This document shows positions 5,331 through 31,062 of a stretch of DNA of 32,000 nucleotides, piece by piece. Both the position numbers and the translations under genes were made by a program. The stretch is from Planctopirus limnophila DSM 3776. GTDB lineage: Bacteria; Planctomycetota; Planctomycetia; Planctomycetales; Planctomycetaceae. A model generated the notes under the pieces. The model had not been told where the DNA came from. It did not search any database and saw nothing but the letters and a program-made list of their open reading frames with translations. Each line of letters opens with the position of its first letter. The first letter of the stretch is position 1. Location: NCBI RefSeq assembly GCF_000092105.1, contig NC_014148.1, positions 4,290,001 to 4,322,000 of the forward strand, given 5' to 3'.

Positions 5331-6737
5331 TTACATATTTGTCTTGGCGTCGCCGGCATCGCCCAGCAGGCTCTGCAAAGCCATCGTAATGGCCTTATCG
5401 TTCGCGTGATCCCGACTGTACACGCGGAATACCGACAGACTCAGTGGCAACTGCCGGAAAAGTTCATCATCCGACAGTTCTGTGATCCCATTCGCCGCTG
5501 GATCAAACAGATGATTTTGACCACCCACTGGGAGCCTGCCACTGGGCCGATGATAATGCCGGGCCACATCGATTCGCATTTCAATCGACTTCTTATCCTC
5601 TGGCAACCGGCCGCGCAAGCGCTGCTCGATGAGGTCAGGTTCCGAGAAGATCGACATCCGCTCGGCACTGCTGGTGTAGTACCCCATGGTGCGCTCTGTC
5701 GCCATCTTCCAATGGACTTCGCGCGAAAGAATCTTCTGCCAGCGCTCGCCCAACTGGCGTGTCGCAGGATCGGTTGATTGCGAGAAGCGATCCACATCGA
5801 CCAGAAATGACGATTCCGTCAACCGGCGGTAGTTTTCCAACTGACCAATCGGGCTCCCCTGGAACAGGTGAGGCATCGTTTCGGGAAACAGATCTTCCAG
5901 TGCCAGATCGATGGCCCGCACAGTGCGATGAAAGTAGACGGTGCGAAAGAGGTTGGCACGGGTTTCGATGAAATTGATCAATGTGGGCAAGCCACGAATA
6001 TGAATCGTTAAGCCCTGAGGAGTAAAGAACGAATAGTGGAGCAACCGGGAGATATCAAACGCCCGCACGTTATAGCCCGTCATGTAGGCATCGCGCAAGA
6101 CGAAATCCATGTTGTCTACAGTATAAATACCGCTGAACATGGCCCGCAGTTTTTTGAGCCAGTCGGGATGGCCTTCGTCATCGGGGGAACCTGGCCTGGG
6201 CCGGCGGATCAGCCACGAAATCTGCCGGGGATCGAGTTCTTCCAGGGGCTTGAGTTCTCCTTTGGGATTCCGCCGGATCCCCCGCAGCAGTTCTCCCAGT
6301 TCCTGCTCGATAATCACGCCTCCCACATCTTCGTGAGTGACACCGAACTGTGCCAGGTAATGATCATCAAAGAAATGGCCGAACGGCCCATGCCCTACGT
6401 CGTGGAGCAGAGCCGCCATGCGCAATAGCGATTCGACATAAGGCCGCGAAGGGACATTGCGGCACGCATCGCACAGTGAATCGTACCAGTAGTCAATGGC
6501 CACAGAGGCCAGATGCATGGCCCCCATCACATGCTGAAACCGCATGTGCTCAGCCGCCGGAAAAACCCACCAGGCCGTCTGTAACTGATGAATATGCCGG
6601 AGCCTCTGCACCCACGGATGATCAATGATATCCTGCTCAGCTGTCTCTCCCGCTGGCAGACCCCCACGCGAAATGAACGGAATATAACCGTGAATCGGAT
6701 CGTGGGAGAGGCTTTCGCTGATGAAGTTTCGCGACAT
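5331..6737 (-). CDS. HD-domain dNTP triphosphohydrolase, SAMHD1/EF1143-like (COG1078-type)
   Basis: 468 aa. Motifs: DPIHGYIPF, WVQRLRHIHQLQ, AEHMRFQHVMG (first His of the HD motif), LLHDVGHGPFGHFFD (the HD motif), VDNMDFVLRDAYMTG and FRTVYFHRTVRA. This is the ordered motif set of SAMHD1-like HD phosphohydrolases. Confidence 0.85.
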   Translation of the reverse strand: MSRNFISESLSHDPIHGYIPFISRGGLPAGETAEQDIIDHPWVQRLRHIHQLQTAWWVFPAAEHMRFQHVMGAMHLASVAIDYWYDSLCDACRNVPSRPYVESLLRMAALLHDVGHGPFGHFFDDHYLAQFGVTHEDVGGVIIEQELGELLRGIRRNPKGELKPLEELDPRQISWLIRRPRPGSPDDEGHPDWLKKLRAMFSGIYTVDNMDFVLRDAYMTGYNVRAFDISRLLHYSFFTPQGLTIHIRGLPTLINFIETRANLFRTVYFHRTVRAIDLALEDLFPETMPHLFQGSPIGQLENYRRLTESSFLVDVDRFSQSTDPATRQLGERWQKILSREVHWKMATERTMGYYTSSAERMSIFSEPDLIEQRLRGRLPEDKKSIEMRIDVARHYHRPSGRLPVGGQNHLFDPAANGITELSDDELFRQLPLSLSVFRVYSRDHANDKAITMALQSLLGDAGDAKTNM

Positions 6738-6825: not shown

Positions 6826-8043
6826 CTACCAGTCGACCGCCAGCATGAGGCAGTTGAGACCGCTCCCAATCCCGAGAAATGCCACGCGGTCGCCCTTCTT
6901 CAGAAAACCACGCTCTTCCGCCAGTGAAGCGGTCATTGGCAAAGAGACTGTCCCCATGTTCCCGAGAAAGGGAAAGGTCGGGAAGTCTTTTTCCAGCGGA
7001 ATTCCCAGCGATTTCAGAACCTGTTCGCGATGTCCCTTCCCCACCTGATGACAGATGACTTTGTCGATTTCCTGTGGCTTCAGCCCAAATCGGGCCAGCA
7101 TCGAAGCCCACGTTTTGACTCCCAGTTCGACACCATACTTCATGACGGAAATCGAATCGGTCTGCATAAACTGGTGGAAGGCGTGCGAAAGCTTGGCGGG
7201 CAAGATCCCGCTCACTTTCTGTTGCACCAGTTGCGGCATGAGTGACCCCAGCCTCGTTTGTGTCACAGCACTGGGAAGCACCTGCTCGACCTTGTTCACA
7301 GCCGCAGGTAAAAGAGATTCAAAACCCCAGCGGCAGAGTTCGTGATGCTCGGGAGCAGCCAACAAGCTGCCACCCAGCAGTTTGTGCCCACGCGCTCGCG
7401 AGAAGGATCCGTCGGTGAGGATCACAGCGACGGCACCACTCCCACCCGTTAACGTGGCCAGAGAGTGTGTCAGATTCTCCATCGTCGGGTCTTCGAGCAA
7501 CCGCTGGATCGTGAACTCGATGATCTCGCGAGCCGATTCGCAGGAAACAACCATCCCTGCACGAATCTGCCCCAGTTCAATCCGGTTGGCAATATCGATG
7601 ATTCCATTGAGCACACCCAGACAGGCATTGCTGAGATCATAGACCGCCACGTCATCGGTCAGACGAAGGTTCGCTGCCACGCCACAGGCGGTTGCCGGCT
7701 CAAACTGTTCCCGGCAGACACCCGCATAAATCAGCACACCAAGATCGCGCGTCGAAACGTTCGATTGTTCGAGTGCCCTGCGGGCCGCTGCTGTCGCTCC
7801 ACTGGTGAGTTTATAGCCTTCCGGCCACCAGCGGCGTTCGCTAATCCCTGTCCAGGCTTCCAACTGCCCGGGGCTCACTTTGAGCTTCTCGTAAACCGGT
7901 GCCAGGCGTTCTTCCAGCTCAACCGAAGAAACAACTTCGGGCGCCAGTTCGTAACCAATGGTTTCAATAAAGACTTTGGAATAACGCATATCGATGAAAG
8001 GATCCGTTTTCAGGAATCGGAGCCGGTCGTTTCGAATCTCCAC
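6826..8043 (-). CDS. Thiolase-superfamily condensing enzyme, FabH family with OleA-like features (3-oxoacyl-ACP synthase III family)
   Basis: 405-aa ORF, with an alternative start at MRYSKVF (ATG = complement of 7987-7989). It has the FabH/OleA catalytic layout: FEPATA (Glu), DLSNACLG (nucleophile Cys141, codon 7621-7623), ICHQVG (His), GNMGTVS (Asn). The C-terminus KKGDRVAFLGIGSGLNCLMLAVDW closely resembles my recollection of Xanthomonas OleA (KKGDRIALLGIGSGLNCSMAEVVW). Confidence 0.85.
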   Translation of the reverse strand: MEIRNDRLRFLKTDPFIDMRYSKVFIETIGYELAPEVVSSVELEERLAPVYEKLKVSPGQLEAWTGISERRWWPEGYKLTSGATAAARRALEQSNVSTRDLGVLIYAGVCREQFEPATACGVAANLRLTDDVAVYDLSNACLGVLNGIIDIANRIELGQIRAGMVVSCESAREIIEFTIQRLLEDPTMENLTHSLATLTGGSGAVAVILTDGSFSRARGHKLLGGSLLAAPEHHELCRWGFESLLPAAVNKVEQVLPSAVTQTRLGSLMPQLVQQKVSGILPAKLSHAFHQFMQTDSISVMKYGVELGVKTWASMLARFGLKPQEIDKVICHQVGKGHREQVLKSLGIPLEKDFPTFPFLGNMGTVSLPMTASLAEERGFLKKGDRVAFLGIGSGLNCLMLAVDW

Positions 8044-8123
8044 AAGGGAGGATTCAACGCTCGAACCGCGTACAGATTCGCAGGTGTGCCCTCGCCTGAC
8101 AACTCATCGCAGGGACTCGACAA

Positions 8124-11100
8124 TCAACCGACACCCCGCACTGCCCAACCTGTCATCTGGTAGATCACCCGCCCATCGACTTCCAGCCAGCCATTGGCAA
8201 TGACCGTATTGGTTGTTCGATCAATCGAAACGATCTCGGCATCAATCGTCACCAGGCTGTCTTTGGGAATCACCTGACCACGATAGACCCATGCCTGCGG
8301 CGTACCACACACAGGTGTTTCAAAGTTCACTCCACCATGCGTACTCACGATTTCGGCTTTGACCATCCAGTGCTTGATCACCTGCAAAAAGGCTTCCAGC
8401 CCCAGCGATCCAGGCATCACCGGGTCTTCGTAGAAGTGCGCCTTGTAATACCATGCTGCCGGATTGACTTGCGCCTCCCCACGGACAAAACCAGCCAGCT
8501 CGGGCCGTCCGGGAACACTGCCCTGCTGGACCAGACAATGTGTGATCTGATCGACAAACGAATAACTCGCTTCAGGAAAAGGTGGCGCTTGTGAGAAGCT
8601 TTCCGAGGCAGCGAAATTTTCCAGCACCACACGCTTGGCATCTCGCAGGCCGACCTGATTGGCGAGTGATGCCGCTGAAAAGAACCCGAAGTAAGTCGTT
8701 CCCGAGTAGACGAGTTCATCCCGGGCAAACATCTCCATCGAGAAGTGCTGAATGATCATGCCGCCTGACATCGAAGCCTGCGTCATGCGGGCTGTGGTGG
8801 TCAACGTACCAATCTCGGGAGTCACGGGCCGATGTTGAGTCGCTTTGCCCCCGAGATTGCGAAACTTGAGATCGGTTTCGCTGGTGAGTGCTGAGCCGGC
8901 ATAAGCCGCCAGCCAGCCACAAGGTTGCAAAGCTGTTTCCAGCAGCACTGAAAATGGCATTTCGGGCTGTCGATTCGCGCTGAAATACCAGGCATCGACA
9001 GGGACATCGTACTGGGCAACGCAATGACAGCCAGCCTTCATGACAAAAGGTGGCCCACCGACTTCCACAATCCGATCCAGAAACTGAAACGGAGGGCCGG
9101 GCAGTCGCGCAATCTTGCGATCGTGGTCGAAGACTGTGTACTCGGGCCCGAAAGCTTCCGAAGGCTTGCCAATCGAATAAGCCGTAATCCTTTCGAGAGG
9201 ATAGATGGCTGGCCGCACATCGTACAGTGGAGTGTTTCCTCCACTCGCCCCGCTCTTCTTAACTTCTCTTATTCCCTCTCCCTCTGGGAGAGGGTTAGGG
9301 TGAGGGTCTTCAATCTTCCTTCCCGCCCAGATCGCTTCCACACGGGCTTTCGTCAGCCCCGTGAACCGCAGCGACATGTTGCTGATTTCCACAATCGGCT
9401 TGCCATCTGCGAACATCAGCGCATCGGCCAGGCAATAGGCATCTCCATGGGAACCCTCTCTCCCATAACCCAGCTCGCGAATCGTGACTTCGTACCAGAC
9501 CTCTTTCGTTGAGGCCAGCACCTGCCCCCGGCACTTGAGCCGACTTTCGATCCCCACGACCGGTTCCGATACCACCTCACCCGTTTCCCCCACCCACCCC
9601 ATGCGGAGCAGATAAATCCGCAACGTGTGCAGGCAGCACTCATACATCAACGTCCCCGGCATCACATGGTCATCACAGAAGTGACATTCGAGGAACCAGT
9701 CGTCGGGATGGATATCGAGTGCGGCACGAATCCGTCCCAGCCCATACTTCCCACCACCGGGTTCAATCTCGAGGACTCGATCCACGAGTCTCAGCTTGCC
9801 ACCCGGAATGGTGTAAGGCTTGTGCAGTGGCAGCCCGGCAAATGCCTGACCAAAAGCACCGACAAGATCTCCCTCTCTCAGCTGTTCGACCTGTGCGTCA
9901 CTCAGATTCCCTGGTGTGATGGCAACGGGTTCGAGCCAATCGGCCGGGAGCTTGCCAGGCCGCGGTGCGAGATCGAGTGTGCTGTGGATGATCCCTTTCC
10001 CTGCTGCCAACGCCGATTCGGTGAAGAACCCGGCACACCCTTCGCGCATCGTAATCAGTGGCTCGCCATTGACTGTTCCATCGAATTCAAATTTGAACAG
10101 CCAGGTCTCACCCTGCTGGAAGAATTTGAGAATGCGAATGTTATAGACAATCGTTTCGCCAGGAACTGGCAGACCCCGGTGGAATGTGACAATCGCATCG
10201 AGAAGACGATAAACCGCCAGGCCACGGGTTTGCAGATCTATCCCCAGCCAGCCCGCGAGAAAGAGATCGGCCTGACCTGATTCTACCGCAATCGCGGTCG
10301 GGATTCGTCCACCATCCAGATACCACCGCGCTGCGTGCACATCGTGTTCTGTCACCACGCAGCCGTGCGACATCGACAGTGGTTCGCCTTCGATGTTCGT
10401 GATTCGATCCACCAACATGAGTGGCTCATCCGGCAGCCGCACACGCGTGGGGTACTGGTCGGCCGCTGCAAAGAGTGGCCCCAGTGCCTCGCCAATTTTC
10501 CCAATCGCGAACTCCAGACACTCCTCGCGCGAGAGACTCCGCGGCGGTGTCGATTTATCGCGTTTCGAGGCAGCCGAATTCGTACTCAGAACCACTTCCT
10601 GATGAGGAGCGAGCTCGAACTCACCTTCTGCCTGCAAACGGGCTAACCGCTCTTCAAAAGCCAGATAGGCCGCTTCAGCAGCATCGAGAGTTTCTGGGGA
10701 ATTCATCGTCATGGGCGTCGCACTTGATGTCTTGGTATCAATCAGTTGTTCAGCAGCAATCTCCTCTCCCTCAGGGAGAGGCCGATTATTTATTCCCTCT
10801 CCCTCAGGGAGAGGGCCAGGGTGAGGGTGAGACTCTGAGCGAGAACTTTCATTCCGCAGTAATTCTTGCAGAACACCCGCGACTTCGCTTGTCACAACGG
10901 GGATCTGCTTCCAGTTCAAGCGTCGGATCGGGATCTCGATCTGCGGGCTGTTGGGCAGGCTCGCAGTCTTTCGTTTTCCTTCAAAGAGCTTCGTGAGCTG
11001 GCATGGTGCGAAGAGTGGAGCCAAATCGACAGCCACTCCCCGGACAGCGAGCCACGCGAGTGTACGGACAAAATGTCGCACGGGATGAGCTGTCAGCGGG

Positions 11101-14100
11101 CAGGCGCTCCGCACGGAAACTTGTTGATCACGGTTTGTGAGAATGGTTTCAATCAAACGCGTGCAGGTGCTGCCCGGGCCAATCTCCAGAAACAGATTAG
11201 TTCCCTCCTGGCGGGCGGCTTCAATGACTGCCGGGAAATCAATCGTATGCAGTGCCTGCGAAGTGATTGCTTCCGCACAGGCCGTCGTGGAAGGGATGTA
11301 GGCCTTCGATGTCGCTGTGCTGTAGACCGTGATCTCTGGTCGCAGTTGAACAGGCAACAGATGCAGTGCCCGCCACTGATCTTCCACCTGCTGCACAAAA
11401 CCCAAATGGACTGTACTGGGCGCCGGCAAAGGTGTGATCGAGAGCGAAAGCTCTTCCAGCATTTCGGTCACTTGCGCTGCATCGCCGCCAATCAGGCATT
11501 TTTGCGGAGCGAGTACAATCAGTAATGCCACCTTTGGTTTTCTGGCAATGGCTGGCCAGAGTCGATCAGCCGGGCATTCGACCACTCCACTCGTCCAGGG
11601 GACAGGTTCATCGGGAGGAATGTTCCATGCCTGGCGGGCCGTATCGAACGGTGGTGTTAATAGACCGGTAAACAGTCGCGAGGCCAGCATGCGCGACAGC
11701 ATTTCATCGCGGGCTGTCCAGATTCTTAATCCGAAGAGTGCTGAGGATTCCCCGAGACTGTTACCAATCGCGGCTTGAGGAACGACTCCAAAGCGGGCCA
11801 GGAGATCGCACATCAATGTGGCCAGCGTCACCTGTCCGAAAATCATCGCCCGATGATCGCCCGCTATGGCTGCTGACGATTCACCATTCCACAACAAGTC
11901 AGGCCGGTACTGATCGGCCAGTCGCAGATTCTCGCGATCCTGCTGTTCGAGGATCTCCGGAAAAGCCTGCCCAAGCTCTCGTCCCATCCCCAGAAAATGG
12001 CTCCCCGAACCTGGAAAAACAAAGGCCAGCTGAGGATTCTGAGGTGCTGAAGAAAGGTAGAGCACACCCTCCTGGCTCAACTCTTCCTGGCCTGAAGCGG
12101 TCGTGATTTGCTCCAGCAAGCTCACCACTGATGCATTCGACGAAACCATCAGAATGGCGAGTGGTCGCGTTACTCCTTGCGGGCGGACTGCATACACCTC
12201 GCAAAAGTGCCGCCACCGGCTGGGCCCCACATGCCGCCCACTCAAACCATTGACAGCCGAGTTCTCCCACGCAGTCAGTAACGAACGCGCCCGCTCTGCC
12301 AGTTGATGTTGGGTTGTCAGGTGAGCAGGCGAAGCTTCTGCAATGCTGTCTGCCTCGTTACCAAATGTTTGTGGCTCAGGCCAGATCACCAGCGGCAATT
12401 CGGTTAAGTGTGGCCTGGTCGCTTCCAGCGATGATAACACCGGCTGTGGAGCTTCCTTAAGCCGAAGCACACTCCACAAGCCTGTCGGAGATTCACATCT
12501 GATGGTGGCTTGGCGCGAACCTTCAGCTCGATTTCTCAACCAGTATTGCCAGCCCTTGGCGCTTTTCCCGAGGGCATCGGCTGCACCGGGTGGGAGTGAT
12601 CGCGTCGCGAGGCAAGCCACAGCGGCAATCGCGTCGATCATCCCGGAAGCCACACCCGCAGGCCCCAAAAGAGCCGAGATTGAAGGAAAGACGTGTGGTA
12701 GTTCCTGAGATGGAGCCTCACCGGCACCAGACGTGATATTCTCGATCAAGGCATAGATCTGATCACCATCGCGCTGGGCATCCGAGAGCCGTTTGAGGAC
12801 GAAAGCACCGGCACCATAGGTCGAGTTGTCGGGAAGCGTACTCTTCCACAACCCGGTTTGATCAGCATCCGGCAGATCGACAGCGCACGCCAGAGCCAGA
12901 TCGATTTCTCTTAATCGTAGCGCCTCGCTGGCCTGACGGAGGGCTTCAAAACTGCTGGCCTCTTCGCTCGAAAGGACAAACGAGGGGCCGCCGCAATCGA
13001 GTTCGCGGGCGACGCGACTGGCCACAATCCCACCGAGATTTCCCATCACTCGATTGGGGGTGAGCGGAGGATGCAGCCCATTCACCAAAGATTCGATGAC
13101 GGCTGCGTGATCTTCGGTCGCAGAGATTCCCGAGTCGCGCAGTTCCTGTTCGAGTCGCCAGCGTAAATGAAAGTTCGACGATTCGATATCGAGGGCAATG
13201 CCGACAAACAGCCCGCAGCGATCTCCTAAGGAGCCTTCAAGACCCGCATGTGCTTTGGCTTCGCTGGCCACATCGAGCATCAGACCCTGTTGAGGGAGCA
13301 TATCCTGCTGCTCGACGGGAGGGATCCGAAAACGCTGCACAGGCCAGGAGAGTTGAGGATCTTCCGTTGGTACAGCTTCCCGTTCGGGATGTCGGCTTTG
13401 CCACCGCTCGAACAGTTGCTCGATCGATGCTTCGCCAAGTGCTGCCGAGAAACCGATGATCGCGACTGGCTCTTGTTCCGGCTGTGGCGTTGTCAGTTCG
13501 GTGGCGACACTCACCTGGACCGGGTGATGAGTTGAGGGGGAATCTGTCTCCTTTCCAGATTCTTCGTCGAGAAACTCTTCCACCAGCAGATGCCCGTTGA
13601 TGCCGCCAAATCCAAAACCATTCACAGCGGCACGCCGGGGGAGACCATGACCTGGGGCTTCCCAGCGTTGACTCTCGCGCAAAACTGCAAAGGGAGAATG
13701 TGGTTCCTGGAGCAGACCGGCTGGCTGCTCATAATTGGCAGTACAGGGCAATATCTGATGCTTGAGAGCCAGCACGACTTTCATCAGAGCAGCCGCACCG
13801 GCACCCGTCAGCAGATGGCCCACATTCGATTTCACTGCTCCCAGCACAGCCCGGGATGAGCGATAGCCTGCCTGCCGCCAGAGTTCATGCAGGCTGGCAA
13901 TCTCGACCTGATCTCCGACTGGTGTTCCCGTGGCATGACATTCGATGAGATCAACACTTTCGGGTAACCATCCCGCCCGCTGATAAGCCGCCCGCATGGC
14001 CCTTAACTGGCCTTCCGCCCGAGGTGAAAGCAGGCTGCCACCCCGATCATTCGAAAGCCCCGCCTCCACCAGCACGGCATGAATTTCCAGGCCGGCTGCA

Positions 14101-15038
14101 ATCGCATCCTGGAGCCTCATCAACAGGAACATCCCCGCTCCCTCACCGACGACCAACCCATCGGCGCGGGCATCGAGTGGACGGCACTTCTGCCCTTGAG
14201 AGAGCGCCTTGAGCTGTGAAAATCCAATCTGTGTGTACTGGCAATCGGGTCGGGAAAGCCCTCCCGCCAGCATCACGTCGGCCCGTCCCGCGCGGAGTTC
14301 ATTCATCGCCAGCTTGACGGCGTAGATCGATGAGGCACAGGCGGCATCGAGTGTGAATGCCGGGCCACGCCAGCCGAGTTCGCGAGCAATGATCGCTGCA
14401 GGCAAGCTCAGCGCGTATCGGTTCTGCTCAGACCAGCGCTGGGAATCTGCCGAGCCGTGGGGCCCAGGTGATTTTGTTCCCGTGGAGGCCTCGAGCACTT
14501 TCGAGAGGTATCTCGAACCGAGAACATCCCAGCACAGATCGTTGATGGATTCGATGGGGAGAGCGATGCTGCCGAGGATCACACCACAGCGGGCCGGGTC
14601 AAACGTCTGCAGGTTCAGCGAGCCGGCTGGCCTGTTCTGATCTGTCCCCCGCAGCAGTGAGTTTTGTGTGCTCTCGATCGTCTGGAAGGCCGTCTTCAGC
14701 CCGAGGCGAAAGAGGGGATCGAGCCCGTTCCATTCGGCTTCAGTGATGGAGGGCAGATGTTGGGAAATGGACGGCCGGTGGGGAAAGAGATTCCAGACCC
14801 CTTCATCGAGATAACAGCCCCAGGTCGAGAGGGCTTTATCCGGCTGAGAAAACGGCCCCAGTGCATAGCGGCTCTCCAACCTCCAGCGACCCTGCGGAAC
14901 ATTTCTCCCGGCATCAACACCTGAGTGAATATTGCTCCAGAAGCCACGCAAATCGCCCGCTCCGGGAAAGTACCCTCCCAGGCCGACAATGGCGATTTTC
15001 TCATGGGAATCAGCAGAGCTTGGGGAACGTTGAGACAC
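8124..15038 (-). CDS. pfaC: PfaC-type PUFA/polyketide synthase subunit: KS - chain-length-factor (inactive KS) - acyltransferase - two tandem FabA-like dehydratase modules
   Basis: 2304 aa with a GTG start at 15038.
- KS: IAIVGLGGYFPGA, TLDAACASS (Cys234, codon 14337-14339), ECHATGTPVGD, KSNVGHLLTGAG.
- Second KS-like domain (about aa 525-900): the active-site position reads FVLSSEEASS, with no Cys, so it is a CLF.
- AT: FVFPGSGSHFLGMG and GNSLGES (Ser about 1094, codon 11757-11759).
- Two DH modules: LFLAGWLGID plus HFCDDHVMPGTL (about aa 1785), and WLAAYAGS plus HFYEDPVMPGSL (about aa 2202).
- I saw no ACP (GxDS), KR or ER motif. Confidence 0.9.
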   Translation of the reverse strand: MSQRSPSSADSHEKIAIVGLGGYFPGAGDLRGFWSNIHSGVDAGRNVPQGRWRLESRYALGPFSQPDKALSTWGCYLDEGVWNLFPHRPSISQHLPSITEAEWNGLDPLFRLGLKTAFQTIESTQNSLLRGTDQNRPAGSLNLQTFDPARCGVILGSIALPIESINDLCWDVLGSRYLSKVLEASTGTKSPGPHGSADSQRWSEQNRYALSLPAAIIARELGWRGPAFTLDAACASSIYAVKLAMNELRAGRADVMLAGGLSRPDCQYTQIGFSQLKALSQGQKCRPLDARADGLVVGEGAGMFLLMRLQDAIAAGLEIHAVLVEAGLSNDRGGSLLSPRAEGQLRAMRAAYQRAGWLPESVDLIECHATGTPVGDQVEIASLHELWRQAGYRSSRAVLGAVKSNVGHLLTGAGAAALMKVVLALKHQILPCTANYEQPAGLLQEPHSPFAVLRESQRWEAPGHGLPRRAAVNGFGFGGINGHLLVEEFLDEESGKETDSPSTHHPVQVSVATELTTPQPEQEPVAIIGFSAALGEASIEQLFERWQSRHPEREAVPTEDPQLSWPVQRFRIPPVEQQDMLPQQGLMLDVASEAKAHAGLEGSLGDRCGLFVGIALDIESSNFHLRWRLEQELRDSGISATEDHAAVIESLVNGLHPPLTPNRVMGNLGGIVASRVARELDCGGPSFVLSSEEASSFEALRQASEALRLREIDLALACAVDLPDADQTGLWKSTLPDNSTYGAGAFVLKRLSDAQRDGDQIYALIENITSGAGEAPSQELPHVFPSISALLGPAGVASGMIDAIAAVACLATRSLPPGAADALGKSAKGWQYWLRNRAEGSRQATIRCESPTGLWSVLRLKEAPQPVLSSLEATRPHLTELPLVIWPEPQTFGNEADSIAEASPAHLTTQHQLAERARSLLTAWENSAVNGLSGRHVGPSRWRHFCEVYAVRPQGVTRPLAILMVSSNASVVSLLEQITTASGQEELSQEGVLYLSSAPQNPQLAFVFPGSGSHFLGMGRELGQAFPEILEQQDRENLRLADQYRPDLLWNGESSAAIAGDHRAMIFGQVTLATLMCDLLARFGVVPQAAIGNSLGESSALFGLRIWTARDEMLSRMLASRLFTGLLTPPFDTARQAWNIPPDEPVPWTSGVVECPADRLWPAIARKPKVALLIVLAPQKCLIGGDAAQVTEMLEELSLSITPLPAPSTVHLGFVQQVEDQWRALHLLPVQLRPEITVYSTATSKAYIPSTTACAEAITSQALHTIDFPAVIEAARQEGTNLFLEIGPGSTCTRLIETILTNRDQQVSVRSACPLTAHPVRHFVRTLAWLAVRGVAVDLAPLFAPCQLTKLFEGKRKTASLPNSPQIEIPIRRLNWKQIPVVTSEVAGVLQELLRNESSRSESHPHPGPLPEGEGINNRPLPEGEEIAAEQLIDTKTSSATPMTMNSPETLDAAEAAYLAFEERLARLQAEGEFELAPHQEVVLSTNSAASKRDKSTPPRSLSREECLEFAIGKIGEALGPLFAAADQYPTRVRLPDEPLMLVDRITNIEGEPLSMSHGCVVTEHDVHAARWYLDGGRIPTAIAVESGQADLFLAGWLGIDLQTRGLAVYRLLDAIVTFHRGLPVPGETIVYNIRILKFFQQGETWLFKFEFDGTVNGEPLITMREGCAGFFTESALAAGKGIIHSTLDLAPRPGKLPADWLEPVAITPGNLSDAQVEQLREGDLVGAFGQAFAGLPLHKPYTIPGGKLRLVDRVLEIEPGGGKYGLGRIRAALDIHPDDWFLECHFCDDHVMPGTLMYECCLHTLRIYLLRMGWVGETGEVVSEPVVGIESRLKCRGQVLASTKEVWYEVTIRELGYGREGSHGDAYCLADALMFADGKPIVEISNMSLRFTGLTKARVEAIWAGRKIEDPHPNPLPEGEGIREVKKSGASGGNTPLYDVRPAIYPLERITAYSIGKPSEAFGPEYTVFDHDRKIARLPGPPFQFLDRIVEVGGPPFVMKAGCHCVAQYDVPVDAWYFSANRQPEMPFSVLLETALQPCGWLAAYAGSALTSETDLKFRNLGGKATQHRPVTPEIGTLTTTARMTQASMSGGMIIQHFSMEMFARDELVYSGTTYFGFFSAASLANQVGLRDAKRVVLENFAASESFSQAPPFPEASYSFVDQITHCLVQQGSVPGRPELAGFVRGEAQVNPAAWYYKAHFYEDPVMPGSLGLEAFLQVIKHWMVKAEIVSTHGGVNFETPVCGTPQAWVYRGQVIPKDSLVTIDAEIVSIDRTTNTVIANGWLEVDGRVIYQMTGWAVRGVG
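9271..9307. repeat. REP-like palindromic element, in frame in the DH1-DH2 linker of the megasynthase
   Basis: Sequence is attccctctccctctgggagagggttagggtgagggt. It contains a perfect 9-bp stem (ccctctccc / gggagaggg) with a 3-nt loop. It matches the copy at 10792-10829 at 34 of 37 aligned positions. On the minus strand it encodes PHPNPLPEGEGI. Confidence 0.85.
10759..10829. repeat. Two tandem REP-like palindromic elements (one truncated, one full), in frame in the AT-DH linker of the megasynthase
   Basis: 10759-10782 is atctcctctccctcagggagaggc, with stem cctctccc/gggagagg and loop tca. 10792-10829 is attccctctccctcagggagagggccagggtgagggtg. Together they encode HPHPGPLPEGEGINNRPLPEGEEI on the minus strand (aa about 1404-1427). 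Confidence 0.85.
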
Positions 15039-15460
15039 TGGGCGTCAGATCATTCAAAAGTCGAATTTCAAACTGGCTCACGTCTGTTCATAGATCCAGG
15101 CGTAGCTCTTGGCAGCAACAGCCCCCCAGTCTACCCAGACAGCAAACCTCAGGCGACTGGCAGGGCTCATTCTAAGGGAAGAAAAGTGCAACGCGCATCC
15201 TTAGCAAAACAAAAGGCGAAATGTCAATAACCGCCTCACACACGAGGAGATCGCTTCGAGAGAGCAGCCACGCTTCTTTCGCAGTTTTTAATGGGGGCGG
15301 AATTATCTCTCGTGAGATAAGCCGTCCACGATCTGACGACTTCATGCAATCACAAGCCCATTCGGTCAGCACCAAAGCCTAGAAAGTCAATGCTTTAATC
15401 TTATGTTTTCTTGTTCATTTGTTGTTTAGTAACAAAATTTAAATGAGATAGGAATTGTCG

Positions 15461-15488
15461 TTGACTTTTAAATTACTTGTGAAATGAT
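15461..15488 (+). promoter_or_regulatory. Candidate sigma70-type promoter for the orphan secreted-protein gene
   Basis: TTGACT (15461-15466), a 16-nt spacer, then AATGAT (15483-15488), preceded by TGa (extended -10-like). It lies in a very AT-rich stretch 55 nt upstream of the ATG at 15543. This is pattern matching only. Confidence 0.3.
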
Positions 15489-15542
15489 CACTCCCACGCT
15501 CACCAAAAGAAATTGTGTTCACAAGAATTTCAGGAGCCCGCG

Positions 15543-16388
15543 ATGATGAAACATGCATTTATTGGTCTGGCGCTACTCATCCATGTTGTCACTGTAGTTA
15601 GTGATGCTGAAGCTACTCTTCCGCGTTTTCTCAGGGCAGCAGGCGACGGAATGCGTACAAGAATCAAAAGTACCGCAGGTGGAATCATTTACGGCGGCAC
15701 TCCATTTGACACTGTTGAATATAATAGTGGATGGGTTGATAGTGCTGTTGGGGATGCGACAGCAGCGATTGATTCAGGTGGTGTTTCTTCATTCTCTACA
15801 GCGGACTCTGCAATTGGCGTAGGTCTTGATGGTCAAACATTAATCTCAACTCCTTTATTATCTCAAGGAGTTATTCTACTTGAGGATTCGGGGACCGGAA
15901 CCGTCAATGGAAGTGTGGGGGTTTTAACAGAATGGGATGTTGAGTGGGTCGTAGATGATGAGGGTGGGCTTCGCGATTTTTCTCATGAGTACACAGTGCA
16001 ATGCGAAATATCGCTTTCTCATTCAATGTTGGCGACGGGAGGTATGTCAACAATGGAGATGATGGCATTCCCTTCAAAAGTTGGTTATGCGGGTAGTTCG
16101 ATAAAGTATGGCGACTCTTTCTTTATTAAGATAGAGGCAGGGGGTGAGGTTATTGAAGTGACTTTTGATGAGTATGAAGGTGAATGGATTTCGAATAATG
16201 GTGTTATTTCTGTATCATACCCCAGCAATGACGATGTTGAAATTGTAGTGAGCAAGAACGTAGTACTCGAAGATGGTGATTCTGTTTCCATTACAGGACA
16301 AATCGGTGTTAATTATACAATATTATCAGCTGATCCTGCTGTTGAGGGTGTTTATACATTGGCTGTTGACGCAAAGCTCATACCCTAG
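15543..16388 (+). CDS. Orphan secreted protein (no recognisable domain), low-GC gene
   Basis: The track ORF starts at TTG 15513. ATG 15543 is preceded by AGGAG (15532-15536) at 6-nt spacing. MMKHAFIGLALLIHVVTVVSDAEA is a signal peptide. The mature part is rich in G/V/S/D/E and looks beta-rich. An open frame of about 280 codons in roughly 40% GC DNA is unlikely by chance. Confidence 0.6.
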   Translation: MMKHAFIGLALLIHVVTVVSDAEATLPRFLRAAGDGMRTRIKSTAGGIIYGGTPFDTVEYNSGWVDSAVGDATAAIDSGGVSSFSTADSAIGVGLDGQTLISTPLLSQGVILLEDSGTGTVNGSVGVLTEWDVEWVVDDEGGLRDFSHEYTVQCEISLSHSMLATGGMSTMEMMAFPSKVGYAGSSIKYGDSFFIKIEAGGEVIEVTFDEYEGEWISNNGVISVSYPSNDDVEIVVSKNVVLEDGDSVSITGQIGVNYTILSADPAVEGVYTLAVDAKLIP

Positions 16389-16754
16389 TTGTATGAGCAA
16401 TTCATCATTATCTTTAAGTGTATTTGAGAATTCGTCGATTGCTCAATTTCTAACAAGACTGCGACTTTCTCTTCTAAAACAAACGTTGTGCTTTTGGTTG
16501 TAAGCCGGGTGATGCTGATATGCCAGCCATACCGAAATGGCTCAGATCGTGCCTAAAAGGCACCTCGATGCAAATTGCGAGTGATCTCACTGTTTATGTA
16601 ACTTCTGGATAGCCCAATCTCGACATTGAGATGAAGACCAAGTAGTGACGATACACGTCAAACAATGCCTCTGACTACCAGGAAATACGCCATATGCCAT
16701 CACAGGATGATTCCTGAAGTGACACATGGCGTTTTACCTTTTGATACGTTGGTA

Positions 16755-18191
16755 TCAATGGGCTGGTGGCGGGCTGTTCTGGAAGGCGCGGTTTCTGAAG
16801 AGAAACTCGACCAGGTTTCCTTCGTGCGGCTGGAGCCAGTTCAATTGGACCGTCTTGACCCGGCCAATGTTCAGCCGGTCGATGTTATACGCATCGAGCA
16901 GTTGCTGGCTGAACTTGGGATCTTCCGTGATCGCTGTGCAGACCAGTGTGGGGCCAATGGCCTTGATCGTCTGATTCTGCGGGCATTCGACAACCGAAGT
17001 AAAGGGGAACATGTACTCGGCATTCGCGAGTTTGGCTTCGGGCGACGAGCAGTGAATGACCGTCGGGAGCAGGTATTCGGACTTCCCCAGTTTCCCGATG
17101 CGGTTACCGCCATGGAAAGCCGCACTGACATCGGTTGAGTAGCCATCCTTCAGACCTTCATCGATCTGGTTCGAGACACTTTCAGCCACACCCGCTGTTG
17201 TGGATGCTGCGAGAATGGCTTTGGGATCCGTTGCGGGAAGAGGCACAATTTCGGACATCTTCTTCGCGATTGCCTGGGCGATTTCCTTCGTGTGCCGGGA
17301 GGCATAGATGCTGGAGCAATTGATACACCCGCGACCACCATTGGCCGCCACGCTATCGACCATGGTATCGAGGTAATCTTCCCAGTGATCCACGAGGTCG
17401 TCGCCCAGAATGATCTTGCTGAAGCCCGGGCCATGAACAGAGACGCGGGGATTGCCTGCATGCTGCTGAACAGTCTGCTGGCTGCCGAAGATCATGCAGC
17501 GATGAGCGTCGCTGAGCAGTCCACCGCCGACATCATGACCACCGGGATACAGCGAAATGGCCTCGCGAGGAATGCCTGCAGCAAAGAATGCTTCCGTGAT
17601 GCGATAAGGTGTCCAGAACTCCTGTGAGCCGGGCTTGAGCATCAAACCAATCTGCATGGGGATCGCTGGGAGCCAGAGTGTATGAACTCCCGGCGAATTC
17701 GAGGGGAGAACAGCCCCCAGAATCGGCGTTGTGGCCTGATAGCTGACCATGACTCCCCGCGATTCCATGCCGTAGCCCTTCGAGAGAATCTCGTGGGGCA
17801 GGCCGCGTGTGAGAGCGTCGATCACTTCGCCCATGTGCGAGAGAACGTACGCATTCTTTCGCATATTGAAGGCACAAAGCGAAATGGGAATACCGGTCGT
17901 TGCGGACTGCATGTTGCAGAACTGCTCAGGAGTGAGTTTCCCGGTGCCGCAGGGAAGTTCGGCATTGAGGTAAAGGTCGGCCGCCTTCTTGCATTTCTCA
18001 ATCAGATCGTCGATCGAAAACTGGCGGAGTGCTTCGCGCGACTGCTGGGCTTTCCGCAGGTCCATCTTCACCATGGCCCCTGTGGCCTGATGCAGTCTGG
18101 CCAGAGTTTCGCCGGTTTCAAAGTGGTTAATATCCACTTTTTCCATACTGTCGTAAGGTTTGCCAAAGCGAAGGATGGGTACGTCGAACAT
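16755..18191 (-). CDS. Aldehyde-dehydrogenase-superfamily protein, LuxC-like acyl-CoA/acyl-protein reductase architecture
   Basis: 478 aa. It has an ALDH-like ordered motif set: LPSNSPGVHTLW (NAD(P)-binding region), VHGPGFSKIIL (equivalent to ELGGKSP), GGRGCINCSSIY (candidate nucleophile Cys), AEYMFPFTSVVECP (equivalent to EExFGP). It is divergent from classical ALDHs. Confidence 0.75.
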   Translation of the reverse strand: MFDVPILRFGKPYDSMEKVDINHFETGETLARLHQATGAMVKMDLRKAQQSREALRQFSIDDLIEKCKKAADLYLNAELPCGTGKLTPEQFCNMQSATTGIPISLCAFNMRKNAYVLSHMGEVIDALTRGLPHEILSKGYGMESRGVMVSYQATTPILGAVLPSNSPGVHTLWLPAIPMQIGLMLKPGSQEFWTPYRITEAFFAAGIPREAISLYPGGHDVGGGLLSDAHRCMIFGSQQTVQQHAGNPRVSVHGPGFSKIILGDDLVDHWEDYLDTMVDSVAANGGRGCINCSSIYASRHTKEIAQAIAKKMSEIVPLPATDPKAILAASTTAGVAESVSNQIDEGLKDGYSTDVSAAFHGGNRIGKLGKSEYLLPTVIHCSSPEAKLANAEYMFPFTSVVECPQNQTIKAIGPTLVCTAITEDPKFSQQLLDAYNIDRLNIGRVKTVQLNWLQPHEGNLVEFLFRNRAFQNSPPPAH

Positions 18192-18950: not shown

Positions 18951-20051
18951 CTAGTAAACCCCCACAGTGGTACTCTTCGCAATTTCATGGAATGGGCGGG
19001 TGCCGCTGATGCCGTCCCAGGGGAACTTATCGCAAGGAAGTTCGCGTTCGCCTTCATCGCGTTCCATGAAGCCCGGCACAAAGAGTTCCTTTGTCATCGT
19101 GTAGAGCTTCACGCGGCCTGTCTGGCCGTAATCCACGACCTTGTTGTAATCCTTGAAATCGACCACCTCGATGGCTGCCCGCGGCTGGGGTGCATGGTAG
19201 GTGATTTTATAGTTATCTGCAGGATCGAACGGCTTACTACAGGCCAGGCCCATCAGCGTGTTGCCGTAAGTAGGGGTCATGAAAACATCCGGCCCGAGAA
19301 GTTCTTCACAGCAGTAGCGATACCACTGGGGAGAAAACTCTGTCCCGCCGCCAAAAATCCCCGTAATCCCCTCTTCGGCAATACTGCTCCCATTATCAAT
19401 CAGCTTGAGAGCCAGTGCTTCGAGCAGTTTAGGAGTCATAAAGGCGCACTTGATATCGTGCCCACCTTTGAGAATTGTCAGCACCTGATCAATGCAGTGA
19501 TTCTTATAATCTTCGGCTTCTTTAATGCGTCCCTGCTTGAGCAGCTTAACGACCCACCGTGGGTCAAGATCAATACAGAAGCAGATCCCGCCGCGATATT
19601 GAGCCAGATGCTCAATGGCCAGCCGCAGTCTACGCGGGCCTGACGGGCCGAGCATCAGCCAGTTGGATCCTGGTGGAAACCATTTGTCGTCCAAGGTTTT
19701 GGAAAACTCTTCATAATCGATCCAATGATCTTCAATGACCATGCGGCTTTTGGGCAGACCTGTCGTTCCGCCTGTTTCGAAAACATAGACAGGTTTACCG
19801 GCCAGGCCTTTGGGAACCCAGCGGCTGATCGGCCCGCCACGCAGCCAGTCGTCTTCAAAGTGAGGGAACTTTTTGAGGTCTTCAAAACTTTTCACCTCTT
19901 TAACAGGGTCAAAGTTAAAAGTTTTGGCCTTTTCCAGCCAGAAGGGAGAACCTGTCTCCGGGCTGAAATGCCAGTGAATCGTTTCCACGGTGTGCTGATC
20001 AAGTCGATCTTTGGCAGCAGCAATCTTGGCAGAATCAACCATAGCCATCAC
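18951..20051 (-). CDS. Adenylate-forming enzyme, LuxE (acyl-protein synthetase) / PaaK (aryl-CoA ligase) type
   Basis: 366 aa. FETGGTTGLPKS is the phosphate-binding loop of the LuxE/PaaK branch (compare SSGTTGKP). GIFGGGTEF is the second Gly-rich motif. GTG at 20051 is followed by ATG at 20048, with aggaa upstream. Confidence 0.8.
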   Translation of the reverse strand: MMAMVDSAKIAAAKDRLDQHTVETIHWHFSPETGSPFWLEKAKTFNFDPVKEVKSFEDLKKFPHFEDDWLRGGPISRWVPKGLAGKPVYVFETGGTTGLPKSRMVIEDHWIDYEEFSKTLDDKWFPPGSNWLMLGPSGPRRLRLAIEHLAQYRGGICFCIDLDPRWVVKLLKQGRIKEAEDYKNHCIDQVLTILKGGHDIKCAFMTPKLLEALALKLIDNGSSIAEEGITGIFGGGTEFSPQWYRYCCEELLGPDVFMTPTYGNTLMGLACSKPFDPADNYKITYHAPQPRAAIEVVDFKDYNKVVDYGQTGRVKLYTMTKELFVPGFMERDEGERELPCDKFPWDGISGTRPFHEIAKSTTVGVY

Positions 20052-24249: not shown

Positions 24250-24657
24250 TCACTGAGACTGATCGAAACGATGTGCGAGATCACAAAGATCTGCCAGATC
24301 AGCTTCTGGAAACAATACTCGCAATCGCCCGGGATCATCAACCTGCCAGCGGGAGACGGCTTCCGCCAGGACATCCAGATAGACGTTTCTGCTCCGTCGT
24401 CCTGGCCCAAAGGGCAAATCCTCGTGACGAATCACCACCGGTCGATCGTGCAGCCACGAAAGATCATTCAAGGCATCTGCCAAAGCATCCCAGTTGTGAC
24501 CAAACCAGGGGCAGCCCAGTTGCTGGCTGTAAATATCCAGAAGTGTCTGCTTCGAGGAAATTCTTGCAGGAATGGTCACTATGAACACACCGACTGCAAG
24601 CTGTACCGGGCTGAGTGGCTCAAAGCAACGGGCGTAGGGAAGATTTTCAGATGACAT
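24250..24657 (-). CDS. Barstar-family ribonuclease inhibitor
   Basis: 135 aa. ISSKQTLLDIYSQQLGCPWFGHNWDALADALNDLSW aligns with barstar's [31 protein letters not shown]. This includes both acidic residues of the barnase-binding helix (D..D in NWDALADAL). It lies 73 bp downstream of a barnase-type RNase gene. Confidence 0.75.
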   Translation of the reverse strand: MSSENLPYARCFEPLSPVQLAVGVFIVTIPARISSKQTLLDIYSQQLGCPWFGHNWDALADALNDLSWLHDRPVVIRHEDLPFGPGRRSRNVYLDVLAEAVSRWQVDDPGRLRVLFPEADLADLCDLAHRFDQSQ

Positions 24658-24730: not shown

Positions 24731-25402
24731 CTATTTCAACTTCTTGAAGCTGCCGTAATGATCGGCAGTGTAATAAATCTCACCCGATTTTCCCGTAATG
24801 ATTCGCTGAGGGCCAGGCCCATCCAGTTCCGCTGTGGGATGCACCCACTCGCGATAATAACCTGCTTCTCGAGTTGGCAACCGGCGTTCGCGATTTTGAA
24901 ACACAGAACCATCATTTCGAAACCGCAGCTTCTCGCCCGCTTCGATCCGGGTGATCGTTTCGGTCAGATCAATATCACCTCGATAAACCACCTTCCCCTG
25001 CAAATCCTTGACCGTCTGCTTGGCAACAATCCAGCGCTTTTCAGCAGAGGGAGTGGGCGATTTCTCAGGCGAAGCGACCTTGGAATTCCCGAGTGAATTC
25101 CCTGCATTCGGTCGTATGACGGGAGATGCATCAGCCGGAGAGTTTCTCAATGCCTCTGGTTGCTGAACGGACTGTGAGGCACCTTGTCGGACCTCGGCAT
25201 TTGCCGGATTCGAAGCCTCCGTCAAGGTGTGATTCTCTTCGGATTCAGCTTCAGTCGCTGGTGCAGGATTCTGAATTGTTGATGGAGGCGACGATGTGGC
25301 AGGTTGTCGCTCCACGACGAACTGCCACGCGAGACTCAAGCTCACGAAAACGATCAGGAGCACCAGATGGGTGCGAGTCATGCGGAACCGGGAGGAAGGC
25401 AC
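24731..25402 (-). CDS. Secreted/membrane-anchored guanyl-specific ribonuclease, barnase / RNase Sa (N1/T1) family
   Basis: 223 aa. The N-terminal TM/signal segment is MTRTHLVLLIVFVSLSLAW. A low-complexity P/S/A/N/E-rich linker of about 110 aa follows. The C-terminal domain DGSVFQNRERRLPTREAGYYREWVHPTAELDGPGPQRIITGKSGEIYYTADHYGSFKKL matches RNase Sa (DGVVFQNRESVLPTQSYGYYHEYTV...GTRRIICG...YYTGDHYATF), including the catalytic Glu, Arg and His positions. Confidence 0.8.
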   Translation of the reverse strand: MPSSRFRMTRTHLVLLIVFVSLSLAWQFVVERQPATSSPPSTIQNPAPATEAESEENHTLTEASNPANAEVRQGASQSVQQPEALRNSPADASPVIRPNAGNSLGNSKVASPEKSPTPSAEKRWIVAKQTVKDLQGKVVYRGDIDLTETITRIEAGEKLRFRNDGSVFQNRERRLPTREAGYYREWVHPTAELDGPGPQRIITGKSGEIYYTADHYGSFKKLK

Positions 25403-26509: not shown

Positions 26510-26797
26510 TTGAGATTTATGGAATGAATTGTTGTAGGGCAATTCTTCCATAGTAAGTTGCGTGACGGATGCAGGAAGGCGGCTTGGCACGAAGTTGACC
26601 GCATGTTGGCGTGATGTCAGCTGCGGAAAGCAAGGTCCGGGTCGCCTTTATCGTTTTCAGGCGGAATTTTTCCGGCTGATTGAACGCTGTCTGCATGGAT
26701 GCTCGTCAAAGACTTTGTACAGTCAATAATTACTGGGAATGTTGGCAGGAGTCGACGACTGCTGCCGAATGAAATTCTTGATTTGAAGGTGGCATTT

Positions 26798-28249
26798 ATG
26801 TCGACTGAAACTGTTGCGGCAGTGGCTGATGCGGACAACAAGCGGAAGCTGGCACTCGAAGTCGATGTTCAGACGGTCGGGCCCTGTCGGCGTCATGTTC
26901 GCGTGAAAATCGCGGAAGCAGAAATTCAGGAAGCCCGCAAGCAGTGTGTGAAAGAGTTTGGAACTTCTGCTGCTGTCCCTGGTTTTCGCGTCGGCAAAGT
27001 TCCCGCAGGATTGATTGAACGCCGCTTCAATAAAGAGATTTCCGAGCGAATTCGCGAAAAGCTCCTCATCGAGAGCCTCGAGCAGCTGGGCGAAGATAAG
27101 TCGATTGAACCGATTGACGAACCACAGTTCGATGTGGCCAGCCTGCAGATCCCTGACACTGGCGATTTTGAATATGAATTCGATGTCGAAGTTCGCCCCG
27201 AGTTTGAAATTCCGGCTTACTCGGGCCTGTCGATCAAGCGACCTGTGCATACTGTGTCAGAAAGCGAAATCGAGAAGCGAATTCGCGATTACCAGATCGA
27301 ACGGGCCACGGAACGTGTCGTTGATCGACCTGTCGCTGCCGGCGATTACGCTCGCGTGACTCTTGAATTCCGACATGCTGATAACAAACTCTCGACAGTT
27401 TCCAATCAGCGCGTGGTCGTTCGGCCCTCACTGAAATTGCGTGATGGCGAGATTACCGGTTTTGACCAGCTGCTCATCGGAGCAAAGGCTGGCGATGTCC
27501 TGACCACCAGCCTCGTGGTCACACCGGAAGCGGAAAACGTGGAACTGCGTGGCGAAACCATCCAGGTCAACGTCACCGTGGTGAATGTCGTTGAGTTCGA
27601 TCTGAAGTCAGTCGATGAAATTGCCGAGGAATTCGCGCTGGAGTCGGCTGAAGAAGTTCGCAATGAAGTCCGTAAGACGCTGGAACGCCAGGTGACATAT
27701 CGTCAGCGGCAGGAAACACGTCGTCAGGTTCTCGAACAGATGACGGCCTCTGCTGATTGGGAACTGCCCGAATCGCTGGTTCGCCGTCAGGTGGAGAACG
27801 CCCTGCGTCGCGAAATGCTCGAAATGCAGCAGGCTGGTTTTTCCTTCGATGAAATTCGTGCTCGCGAAAACGAACTGCGTCAGAAGTCGCTGACAACCAC
27901 TCGCCAGGCACTCAAGGAACATTTTGTTCTCGATCGTGTGGCTACGAAGGAATCGATTGAAGTCGAGCCTTACGAAATTGATGCCGAGATTGGCCTCATG
28001 GCTTACCAGCAGATGGAAACACCACGTAAGCTGCGTGCCCGCCTGCAGAAGAACGGCATGATTGAGAATCTCGAAGCTCAGATTCGCGAACGCAAGGCTG
28101 TGGATCACATCCTGGCTCATGCCACTTTTGAAGATATCCCGATGGAGATCTCTGAGACGGAAACCTCCTTCGCCTTGCCTTACTCAGTTGCCGGGACATC
28201 AGTCGCTGGAACAATTGAGGATAGTCAGGAAGAGGACAGTGAGGAATAA
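26798..28249 (+). CDS. tig: Trigger factor
   Basis: ATG 26798 is preceded by gaaggtgg. In the N-terminal ribosome-binding domain, GFRVGKVP matches the GFRxGxxP TF signature. The protein is about 480 aa with an acidic C-terminus and sits directly upstream of clpP, the classic tig-clpP synteny. The track ORF's extra 33 N-terminal residues are unlikely to be real. Confidence 0.9.
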   Translation: MSTETVAAVADADNKRKLALEVDVQTVGPCRRHVRVKIAEAEIQEARKQCVKEFGTSAAVPGFRVGKVPAGLIERRFNKEISERIREKLLIESLEQLGEDKSIEPIDEPQFDVASLQIPDTGDFEYEFDVEVRPEFEIPAYSGLSIKRPVHTVSESEIEKRIRDYQIERATERVVDRPVAAGDYARVTLEFRHADNKLSTVSNQRVVVRPSLKLRDGEITGFDQLLIGAKAGDVLTTSLVVTPEAENVELRGETIQVNVTVVNVVEFDLKSVDEIAEEFALESAEEVRNEVRKTLERQVTYRQRQETRRQVLEQMTASADWELPESLVRRQVENALRREMLEMQQAGFSFDEIRARENELRQKSLTTTRQALKEHFVLDRVATKESIEVEPYEIDAEIGLMAYQQMETPRKLRARLQKNGMIENLEAQIRERKAVDHILAHATFEDIPMEISETETSFALPYSVAGTSVAGTIEDSQEEDSEE

Positions 28250-28264
28250 TCCTTCGCCGATCTG

Positions 28265-28298
28265 GAAAAGTGCCACTTCGGAAGAAGTGGCACTTTTC
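28265..28298 (+). terminator. Intrinsic terminator after tig
   Basis: Perfect 15-bp inverted repeat gaaaagtgccacttc / gaagtggcacttttc with loop ggaa. The descending arm ends in TTTTC. It starts 16 nt after the tig stop codon. Confidence 0.6.
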
Positions 28299-29301: not shown

Positions 29302-29402
29302 CGAACATTTGTGGTGCGCGATGTCCATCGGTGACCCGGCACCAACAGAACTCTCTCAGATCGTATTTTCATCACCGTCCCTTTCTCGTGCGAGAATTCA
29401 GC

Positions 29403-30985: not shown

Positions 30986-31062
30986 TTCCTTTAGCGAAGC
31001 CAATTTTTACACTCGCCTGCAAGCCATTTTTTCGATCTCCAACAATCTTCGAAGATTTCGCG

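Follow-up and report, generated by a model that had tools for sequence, protein, structure and literature searches.

The pfaBC-oleA Locus

The stretch analyzed here (the window) comprises 32,000 nucleotides of the genome of the freshwater planctomycete Planctopirus limnophila DSM 3776 (contig NC_014148.1, positions 4,290,001 to 4,322,000; the coordinates below are those of the window). It contains, on the minus strand, a gene coding for a subunit of a Pfa-like synthase, hereafter pfaBC, followed by a gene coding for a thiolase, oleA. These two genes very probably constitute one half of a split pfa-ole pathway, i.e., a rearranged member of the known system that combines a Type I pfa cluster with ole genes. 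The 2304-aa (amino acid) product of pfaBC is composed of ketosynthase (KS), chain-length factor (CLF), acyltransferase (AT), and dehydratase (DH) domains, and the features of the locus are as follows.

8124-15038, minus strand: pfaBC-type gene, 2304 aa, KS-CLF-AT-DH2 subunit of a Pfa-like polyunsaturated fatty-acyl synthase (open reading frame list, Pfam, NCBIfam)
13728-15002, minus strand: KS domain of PfaBC, aa 13-437 (PF00109 and PF02801; motifs DAACASS, HATGT, NVGH)
12399-13466, minus strand: CLF domain of PfaBC, aa ~525-880, KS-like (second PF00109 stretch; SSEEASS)
11109-12023, minus strand: PfaB-like AT domain of PfaBC, aa 1006-1310 (PF00698; TIGR02816; GNS1094LGE)
9384-10436, minus strand: first pair of pseudo-DH and FabA-type dehydratase of PfaBC, aa 1535-1885 (PF07977 on segments; HFCDDHVMPG)
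8154-9104, minus strand: second pair of pseudo-DH and FabA-type dehydratase of PfaBC, aa 1979-2295 (PF07977 on segments; HFYEDPVMPG)
7990-8123, minus strand: spacer between pfaBC and oleA, 134 bp (sequence; the terminator scan lists no site inside)
6826-7989, minus strand: oleA, 387 aa, predicted head-to-head Claisen-condensing thiolase (PRK09258; alignment with 3ROW)

Domains and Residues of PfaBC

The Pfam scan was made on the whole PfaBC protein and on segments of it. The KS domain has a complete catalytic set, consisting of Cys234 (in DAACASS), His368, and His408. The second, Cys-less ketoacyl-synt domain gives a partial Pfam match (aa ~565-723), and because Glu693 occupies the Cys site (motif SSEEASS) it is assigned as a chain-length factor. 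The region between residues 150 and 724 matches the solved PfaC KS-CLF didomain (6RIW). The AT domain is matched as Acyl_transf_1 (aa 1006-1310), has its serine at position 1094 (GNS1094LGE), and scores 81 bits with the NCBIfam family pfaB_fam (TIGR02816), which is under the cut-off of 144. Four FabA-like stretches (aa 1535-1661, 1745-1885, 1979-2112, and 2159-2295) make up the two pseudo-DH/DH pairs, and the two DH histidines, His1786 and His2201, both lie within the motif HFxxDxVMPG.

A first-pass annotation of this DNA had described the domain order as that of PfaC or Pfa3. The order KS-CLF-AT-DH-DH is borne out by Pfam and by the motifs, whereas the label has to be changed. A canonical PfaC (KS-CLF-DH2, with a separate PfaB) is ruled out by the presence of the AT domain, which is similar to the pfaB family. 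The myxobacterial Pfa3 is a KS-CLF-AT-DH2-AGPAT protein, i.e., it shares the KS-CLF-AT-DH-DH order with PfaBC and carries in addition a C-terminal 1-acylglycerol-3-phosphate acyltransferase (AGPAT) domain. It is ruled out as well, as no Pfam match to AGPAT was detected in PfaBC, which ends 9 residues past DH2. Judging from the sequence, a PfaB/PfaC fusion of Type I (Shulse and Allen 2011) is a more fitting label for the protein than PfaC or Pfa3; the domain order and all the catalytic residues of such a subunit are present.

No acyl carrier protein (ACP), ketoreductase (KR), or enoyl reductase (ER) had been seen in the protein at first pass, and none of PP-binding, KR, and ER has a Pfam match in it at E ≤ 0.01. 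The same holds for the rest of the window as far as carriers are concerned: a phmmer search with AcpP of Escherichia coli against all six-frame open reading frames of at least 40 aa gave no match, and the motif GxDS[LIVM] does not occur in the window. When the remaining large open reading frames were scanned with Pfam and NCBIfam, PfaA, PfaD, PfaE, OleB, OleC, and OleD also proved to be missing from these 32 kb.

The pfaBC gene contains three copies of a 19-bp palindrome, CCTCTCCCTSAGGGAGAGG (9275-9293, 10763-10781, and 10796-10814), for which the chance expectation is none. All of them sit in linker regions of pfaBC, where their in-frame reading is PLPEGEG or PLPEGEE. The number of copies depends on the strain, a single exact copy being found in a related metagenome-assembled genome (MAG) and no copy in P. 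hydrillae. These palindromes resemble small repeat elements whose presence in the interdomain linkers is tolerated.

The Thiolase Is an OleA

The most likely start of oleA is the ATG at 7989 (387 aa), which is also the form found in public gene calls. With this start the stop codon of pfaBC is separated from oleA by 134 bp, and with the GTG at 8043 by 80 bp. Consensus scans for promoters and terminators gave no better outcome than on shuffled sequence.

The OleA-like character of the thiolase, noticed at first pass together with the 80- to 134-bp gap, is well supported. The protein scores 519.5 bits with NCBIfam PRK09258 (cut-off 285), and its best solved relative is the OleA of Xanthomonas (3ROW, E = 2e-55), the FabH structures being at ~1e-20. 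The residues Glu97, Cys123, His314, and Asn344 align with the catalytic Glu117, Cys143, His285, and Asn315 of X. campestris OleA (PDB 3ROW and related structures), including the condensation-specific glutamate, and the C-terminal GIGSGLNC...W motif is kept too. Identity with the OleA of a Shewanella oleABCD operon is 55%. A housekeeping FabH is ruled out by a score of 80.5 bits with fabH TIGR00747 (cut-off 292) and by the existence of a separate and essential fabH, Plim_2221, the P. limnophila ortholog of the E. coli gene. Hence, on the evidence of its sequence, the thiolase at 6826-7989 is a true OleA rather than a FabH.

The protein is identical to ADG69136.1 of P. limnophila and differs by two to four residues from the proteins of P. 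ephydatiae, P. hydrillae, and a Planctopirus-like MAG. It has a 49-residue insertion (aa 226-274) without counterpart in the OleA of Xanthomonas and Shewanella. The length at this site varies widely among relatives, the total length of OleA ranging from ~350 to ~399 aa (the longest being from gammaproteobacterial and Phycisphaerae MAGs), and the insertion could provide a docking surface.

For PfaBC, dN/dS (the ratio of nonsynonymous to synonymous substitution rates) is 0.12-0.14 relative to two other Planctopirus genomes. OleA has a dN/dS of 0.02-0.05, and its dS reaches ~1.8. Such low values reflect purifying selection, and both genes are therefore clearly in use.

Gene Order in Other Genomes

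PfaBC, the C-terminus of PfaA, OleB, OleC, and OleD were mapped on 80 genome loci (labeled L) containing relatives of OleA with 55-99% identity, and the counts that follow refer to 78 of them, two Planctopirus loci (L005 and L006) being left out. A pfaBC-type gene lies directly 5′ of oleA at 50 of the 66 loci with enough upstream sequence, usually with a gap of 2-160 bp. Just 3′ of oleA one finds oleB (57/68 loci), and oleB, oleC, and oleD are all there at 32 of 52 loci. The KR-DH end of pfaA is found just 5′ of pfaBC at 19 of 39 loci. In conclusion, the succession pfaBC-oleA is conserved very widely and forms the usual core of the known pfa-ole clusters.

The unbroken series pfaA-pfaBC-oleA-oleB-oleC-oleD is present in Aquisphaera, in MAGs of Gemmataceae, Kuenenia-labeled, and other planctomycetes, and in one Geobacteraceae MAG; the examples from other planctomycete orders are L050, L051, L063, L069, L070, and L079. 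PfaBC orthologs that adjoin pfaA and oleA elsewhere are 39-57% identical over the full length. Relatives at the family level have pfaBC-oleA-oleB-oleC (L010, L014, L015, L018, L019, L024, and L026). Complete sets standing together in relatives, which the first-pass annotation had named as a finding that would refute its non-canonical reading, were thus nearly found with pfaA-pfaBC-oleABCD, but not entirely so: pfaD was not seen within these clusters. Moreover, the nearest non-Planctopirus relatives, which are Schlesneria-like (OleA 74-77% identical), mostly have pfaBC-oleA-oleB-oleC without pfaA upstream.

Schlesneria paludicola DSM 18645 (L087 and L088; JH636434.1) shows how far the genes may drift apart. 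There, oleA and oleC each stand alone, ~1.55 Mb from each other, and pfaBC lies ~8 kb away from oleC, in the opposite orientation. The genes of the pathway disperse freely in Planctomycetaceae, and this scattering does not stop the pathway.

Partner Genes Elsewhere in P. limnophila

Shulse and Allen (2011) described in this very strain, then Planctomyces limnophilus DSM 3776, a "Type J" cluster consisting only of pfaD [ER] and pfaA [KS-MAT-ACP3-KR, where MAT stands for malonyl-CoA acyltransferase]. They regarded it as "apparently partial" and nearest to Type I, which carries a pfaBC fusion [KS-CLF-AT-DH2] probably feeding ole. Type J supplies exactly the domains that PfaBC is without. Since the gene at 8124-15038 holds the KS-CLF-AT-DH2 subunit that Type J misses, the synthase is split rather than partial: the published cluster and pfaBC make a complete synthase over two loci. 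The part of the gene table of a P. limnophila transposon study (PMC10632474) in which product annotation was covered, Plim_0001-2023, lists a PfaA at Plim_0462 and a protein of the PfaD family at Plim_0463, neither of them essential. A PfaA with tandem ACPs and a PfaD thus exist in the genome according to published annotation, unlinked to pfaBC-oleA. A 4′-phosphopantetheinyl transferase is annotated at Plim_2984.

The gene order around the pair agrees with the published locus tags of its flanks (moaA, Plim_3318; tig, Plim_3336; clpP, Plim_3337/3338), which would place oleA at about Plim_3323 and pfaBC at about Plim_3324, i.e., ~2,860 locus tags from pfaA and pfaD. Plim_3297, annotated as FabA/FabZ and belonging to an "only essential" paralog group, was considered as a candidate for pfaBC. 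It was rejected because the paralog grouping demands similar protein lengths and because of the position indicated by the gene count.

The presence of pfaA and pfaD elsewhere in the genome also means that pfaBC-oleA is no orphan. The first-pass annotation had seen the pair as such, detached from both sets of partners and in a non-canonical arrangement. The annotation of Plim_0462/Plim_0463 and the usual adjacency of pfaBC and oleA speak against this, and it is the other option of that annotation, a split cluster, that is borne out, with pfaA and pfaD at a distant locus of the same genome.

A Probable Split Pathway and Its Precedents

We infer the partnership of PfaBC with PfaA and PfaD, as well as the substrate and the product, along the following lines. 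Within an iterative Pfa-like synthase of Type I, PfaBC would be the fused PfaB/PfaC subunit (KS-CLF-AT-DH2). Lacking a carrier domain itself, it would act on acyl chains held by the tandem ACPs of PfaA (KS-MAT-ACP3-KR, Plim_0462). Its share of the work would be the second KS/CLF pair, the transfer of malonyl or acyl groups, and FabA-type dehydration and isomerization, and enoyl reduction would come from PfaD (ER, Plim_0463). The synthase would make a polyunsaturated medium-chain acyl thioester, 16:4n-3 according to the prediction for Shewanella, and OleA would join two such chains head-to-head by a non-decarboxylative Claisen condensation, giving a 2-alkenyl-3-keto acid. If OleD, OleC, and OleB are encoded elsewhere in the genome, this acid would be reduced and then, by way of a beta-lactone and its decarboxylation, become the C31:9 polyene. 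Without these enzymes, spontaneous decarboxylation of the acid would give the 31:8 ketone.

The precedent for this scheme is Shewanella, where the Pfa synthase is required for the 31:9 hydrocarbon, and where OleA has been proposed to take 16:4n-3 straight from the ACPs of PfaA before OleBCD turn the keto acid into the alkene (Allemann et al. 2019, PMC6463001). The pfaABCDE and oleABCD systems of Shewanella share their chemistry and OleA family with the pathway proposed for P. limnophila, and the catalytic Cys is at position 123 in both OleA proteins. They differ in that PfaB and PfaC are separate, that eicosapentaenoic acid is also made, and that the pfa and ole operons, although unlinked, are each intact. 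Among the closest known arrangements is the Type I pfa-like cluster, with the same KS-CLF-AT-DH2 fusion, oleA immediately 3′, and a proposed role in supplying the C31:9 polyolefin precursor. In contrast to it, P. limnophila has pfaA and pfaD far away from pfaBC-oleA, and no oleBCD next to the pair; oleBCD may even be missing from the genome. The OleA of Xanthomonas draws on chains derived from the type II fatty acid synthase, unlike the supply proposed for Planctopirus. A direct coupling of OleA with the synthase would explain why oleA is so often right behind pfaBC.

The expected lipid is known from planctomycetes. Limnoglobus roseus PX52, in which pfaA-pfaBC-oleA are linked (L077), contains 2.4% of C31:9, said to be characteristic of all Gemmataceae. 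The C31:9 alkene has also been reported from a Pirellula-like isolate, and a paper citing the description of Schlesneria places the C31 polyene among the lipids of many planctomycetes.

The Search for OleBCD and the Alternative Explanations

Several results weigh against this reading of the locus. For the genus Planctopirus, the literature search gave no report of C31:9 or of a C31 ketone, and no experiment tying the pair to a lipid. The pfaA and pfaD of P. limnophila are known from published annotation and not from sequence, and the tags given above for pfaBC and oleA come from counting genes between anchors. The remaining points concern OleB and OleC. With queries taken from L020, a Planctomycetota MAG with Schlesneria-like OleA and OleC, no Planctopirus protein was found among the best 120 matches to OleB, nor in the nine OleC clusters examined. 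The members of 29 candidate OleB/OleC clusters were looked up, and other matches were tied to known loci; in this way all of the OleB clusters at a plausible identity of 63-72% (35/35) are accounted for, by membership or by a known locus, and none has a Planctopirus member. These searches did return proteins of Schlesneria and Planctellipticum, and the OleA cluster does hold three named Planctopirus species. Finally, no "AMP-dependent synthetase" is annotated in Plim_0001-2023. The oleBCD genes of Planctopirus may thus be missing or divergent, and as no OleB or OleC of Planctopirus is found among the nearest relatives, the end product may be either the 31:9 alkene or the 31:8 ketone.

A variant of the split pathway deserves some weight for this reason, if tentatively held: oleBCD would have been lost, pfaA, pfaD, pfaBC, and oleA would have been kept, and the pathway would stop at the beta-keto acid and yield the C31 ketone (31:8). 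The absence of Planctopirus from the OleB and OleC clusters examined, when three of its species are in the OleA cluster, is what one expects from such a loss. So is the lack of OleB, OleC, and OleD over the 17 kb upstream and the 10 kb downstream of the pair in the window, in L005 and L006, and in two relatives with 90% identical OleA. The variant is further supported by the 31:8 ketone, which pfaA-E and oleA alone yield both in E. coli and in an ole mutant of Shewanella (Allemann et al. 2019, PMC6463001), and by the very strong constraint on OleA. Yet the absence rests on the best 120 matches per search and on cluster names that cover some of the members, and the annotation table covers about half of the genes. 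Moreover, a scattered arrangement of ole genes is frequent in this family, S. paludicola being one example, which makes unlinked or divergent oleBCD plausible. The stronger claim that Planctopirus lost oleBCD, kept the other four genes under strong purifying selection, and is a natural producer of the C31 ketone by OleA only, or else passes the keto acid to other enzymes, is a little more doubtful still. Candidates for such enzymes are the genus-specific pair of an EhpF-like adenylating enzyme and an aldehyde-dehydrogenase-like protein encoded upstream on the same strand.

A self-standing module for chain extension and dehydration, acting in trans without a Pfa synthase (for example, on acyl-ACPs of the type II fatty acid synthase) and feeding OleA in a new pathway, had been proposed by the first-pass annotation. 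The lack of a carrier in the protein and anywhere in the 32 kb, and the unlinked positions of pfaA and pfaD, would agree with it. Nevertheless, it is very improbable. To lack an ACP is normal for every PfaC and PfaBC subunit, pfaA and pfaD are kept in the same genome, and the orthologs of PfaBC stand directly behind pfaA in other planctomycetes. The PfaBC of P. limnophila has no sequence feature that would distinguish it from the copies embedded in clusters. That the pair is a decaying remnant of a broken cluster, without current function, is less credible yet, as the fragmentation of the cluster and the short palindromic repeats inserted into the pfaBC linkers are opposed by two intact reading frames with all their catalytic residues, by the dN/dS values, and by the retention of the pair in relatives with 90% identical OleA.

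Neighboring Genes

The remaining features of the window are the following.

5331-6737, minus strand: gene for an HD-domain dNTP (deoxynucleoside triphosphate) triphosphohydrolase of the SAMHD1/EF1143 type
15513-16388, plus strand: 291-aa open reading frame without family match, within a low-GC stretch
16755-18191, minus strand: divergent gene of the aldehyde-dehydrogenase family
18951-20051, minus strand: EhpF-like single-domain adenylating enzyme, 366 aa (E = 4e-44 to EhpF of phenazine, i.e., griseoluteic acid, biosynthesis)
24250-24657, minus strand: gene for a ribonuclease of the barnase family
24731-25402, minus strand: gene for a barstar inhibitor
26699-30011, plus strand: trigger factor followed by two tandem clpP genes (Plim_3336-3338)
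30925-31884: DUF3050/heme-oxygenase-like gene

The HD-domain gene is always 3′ of oleA in Planctopirus and in the relatives with 90% identical OleA, and its conservation is very strong (dN/dS of 0.01-0.03). The order pfaBC-oleA-HD is found only in Planctopirus and these two uncultured relatives. A role in the pathway was considered for this gene and rejected, as a dNTP triphosphohydrolase of the SAMHD1 type is unrelated to lipids; it is probably just a stable neighbor.

On the other side of the pair, the stretch between pfaBC and the aldehyde-dehydrogenase-like gene (15039-16754) has a low GC content (0.45-0.46, versus 0.55-0.60 on both sides). It is probably a recent insertion, as P. hydrillae lacks it and has only 294 bp between the two genes. 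The aldehyde-dehydrogenase-like and EhpF-like genes are co-directional with pfaBC and adjoin it only in Planctopirus. Their pairing resembles a couple that activates and reduces carboxylates, and a role of the two proteins in the pathway is possible but unsupported. Farther away, the barnase-family gene and the barstar gene directly next to it form a toxin and immunity pair.

Implications

In outline, the biology is already understood: OleA receives its chains from Pfa synthases, and the C31:9 polyene, a common lipid of planctomycetes, is completed by OleBCD. What is new is that the pfaBC locus completes the "partial Type J" cluster described for P. limnophila. The wide conservation of pfaBC-oleA agrees with the direct transfer of substrate from the synthase to OleA that has been proposed. 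Should oleBCD really be missing, Planctopirus could show the natural product of a pathway with OleA only. Since this genus is genetically tractable and transposon libraries exist, it could be convenient for studies of the function of the polyene or the ketone.

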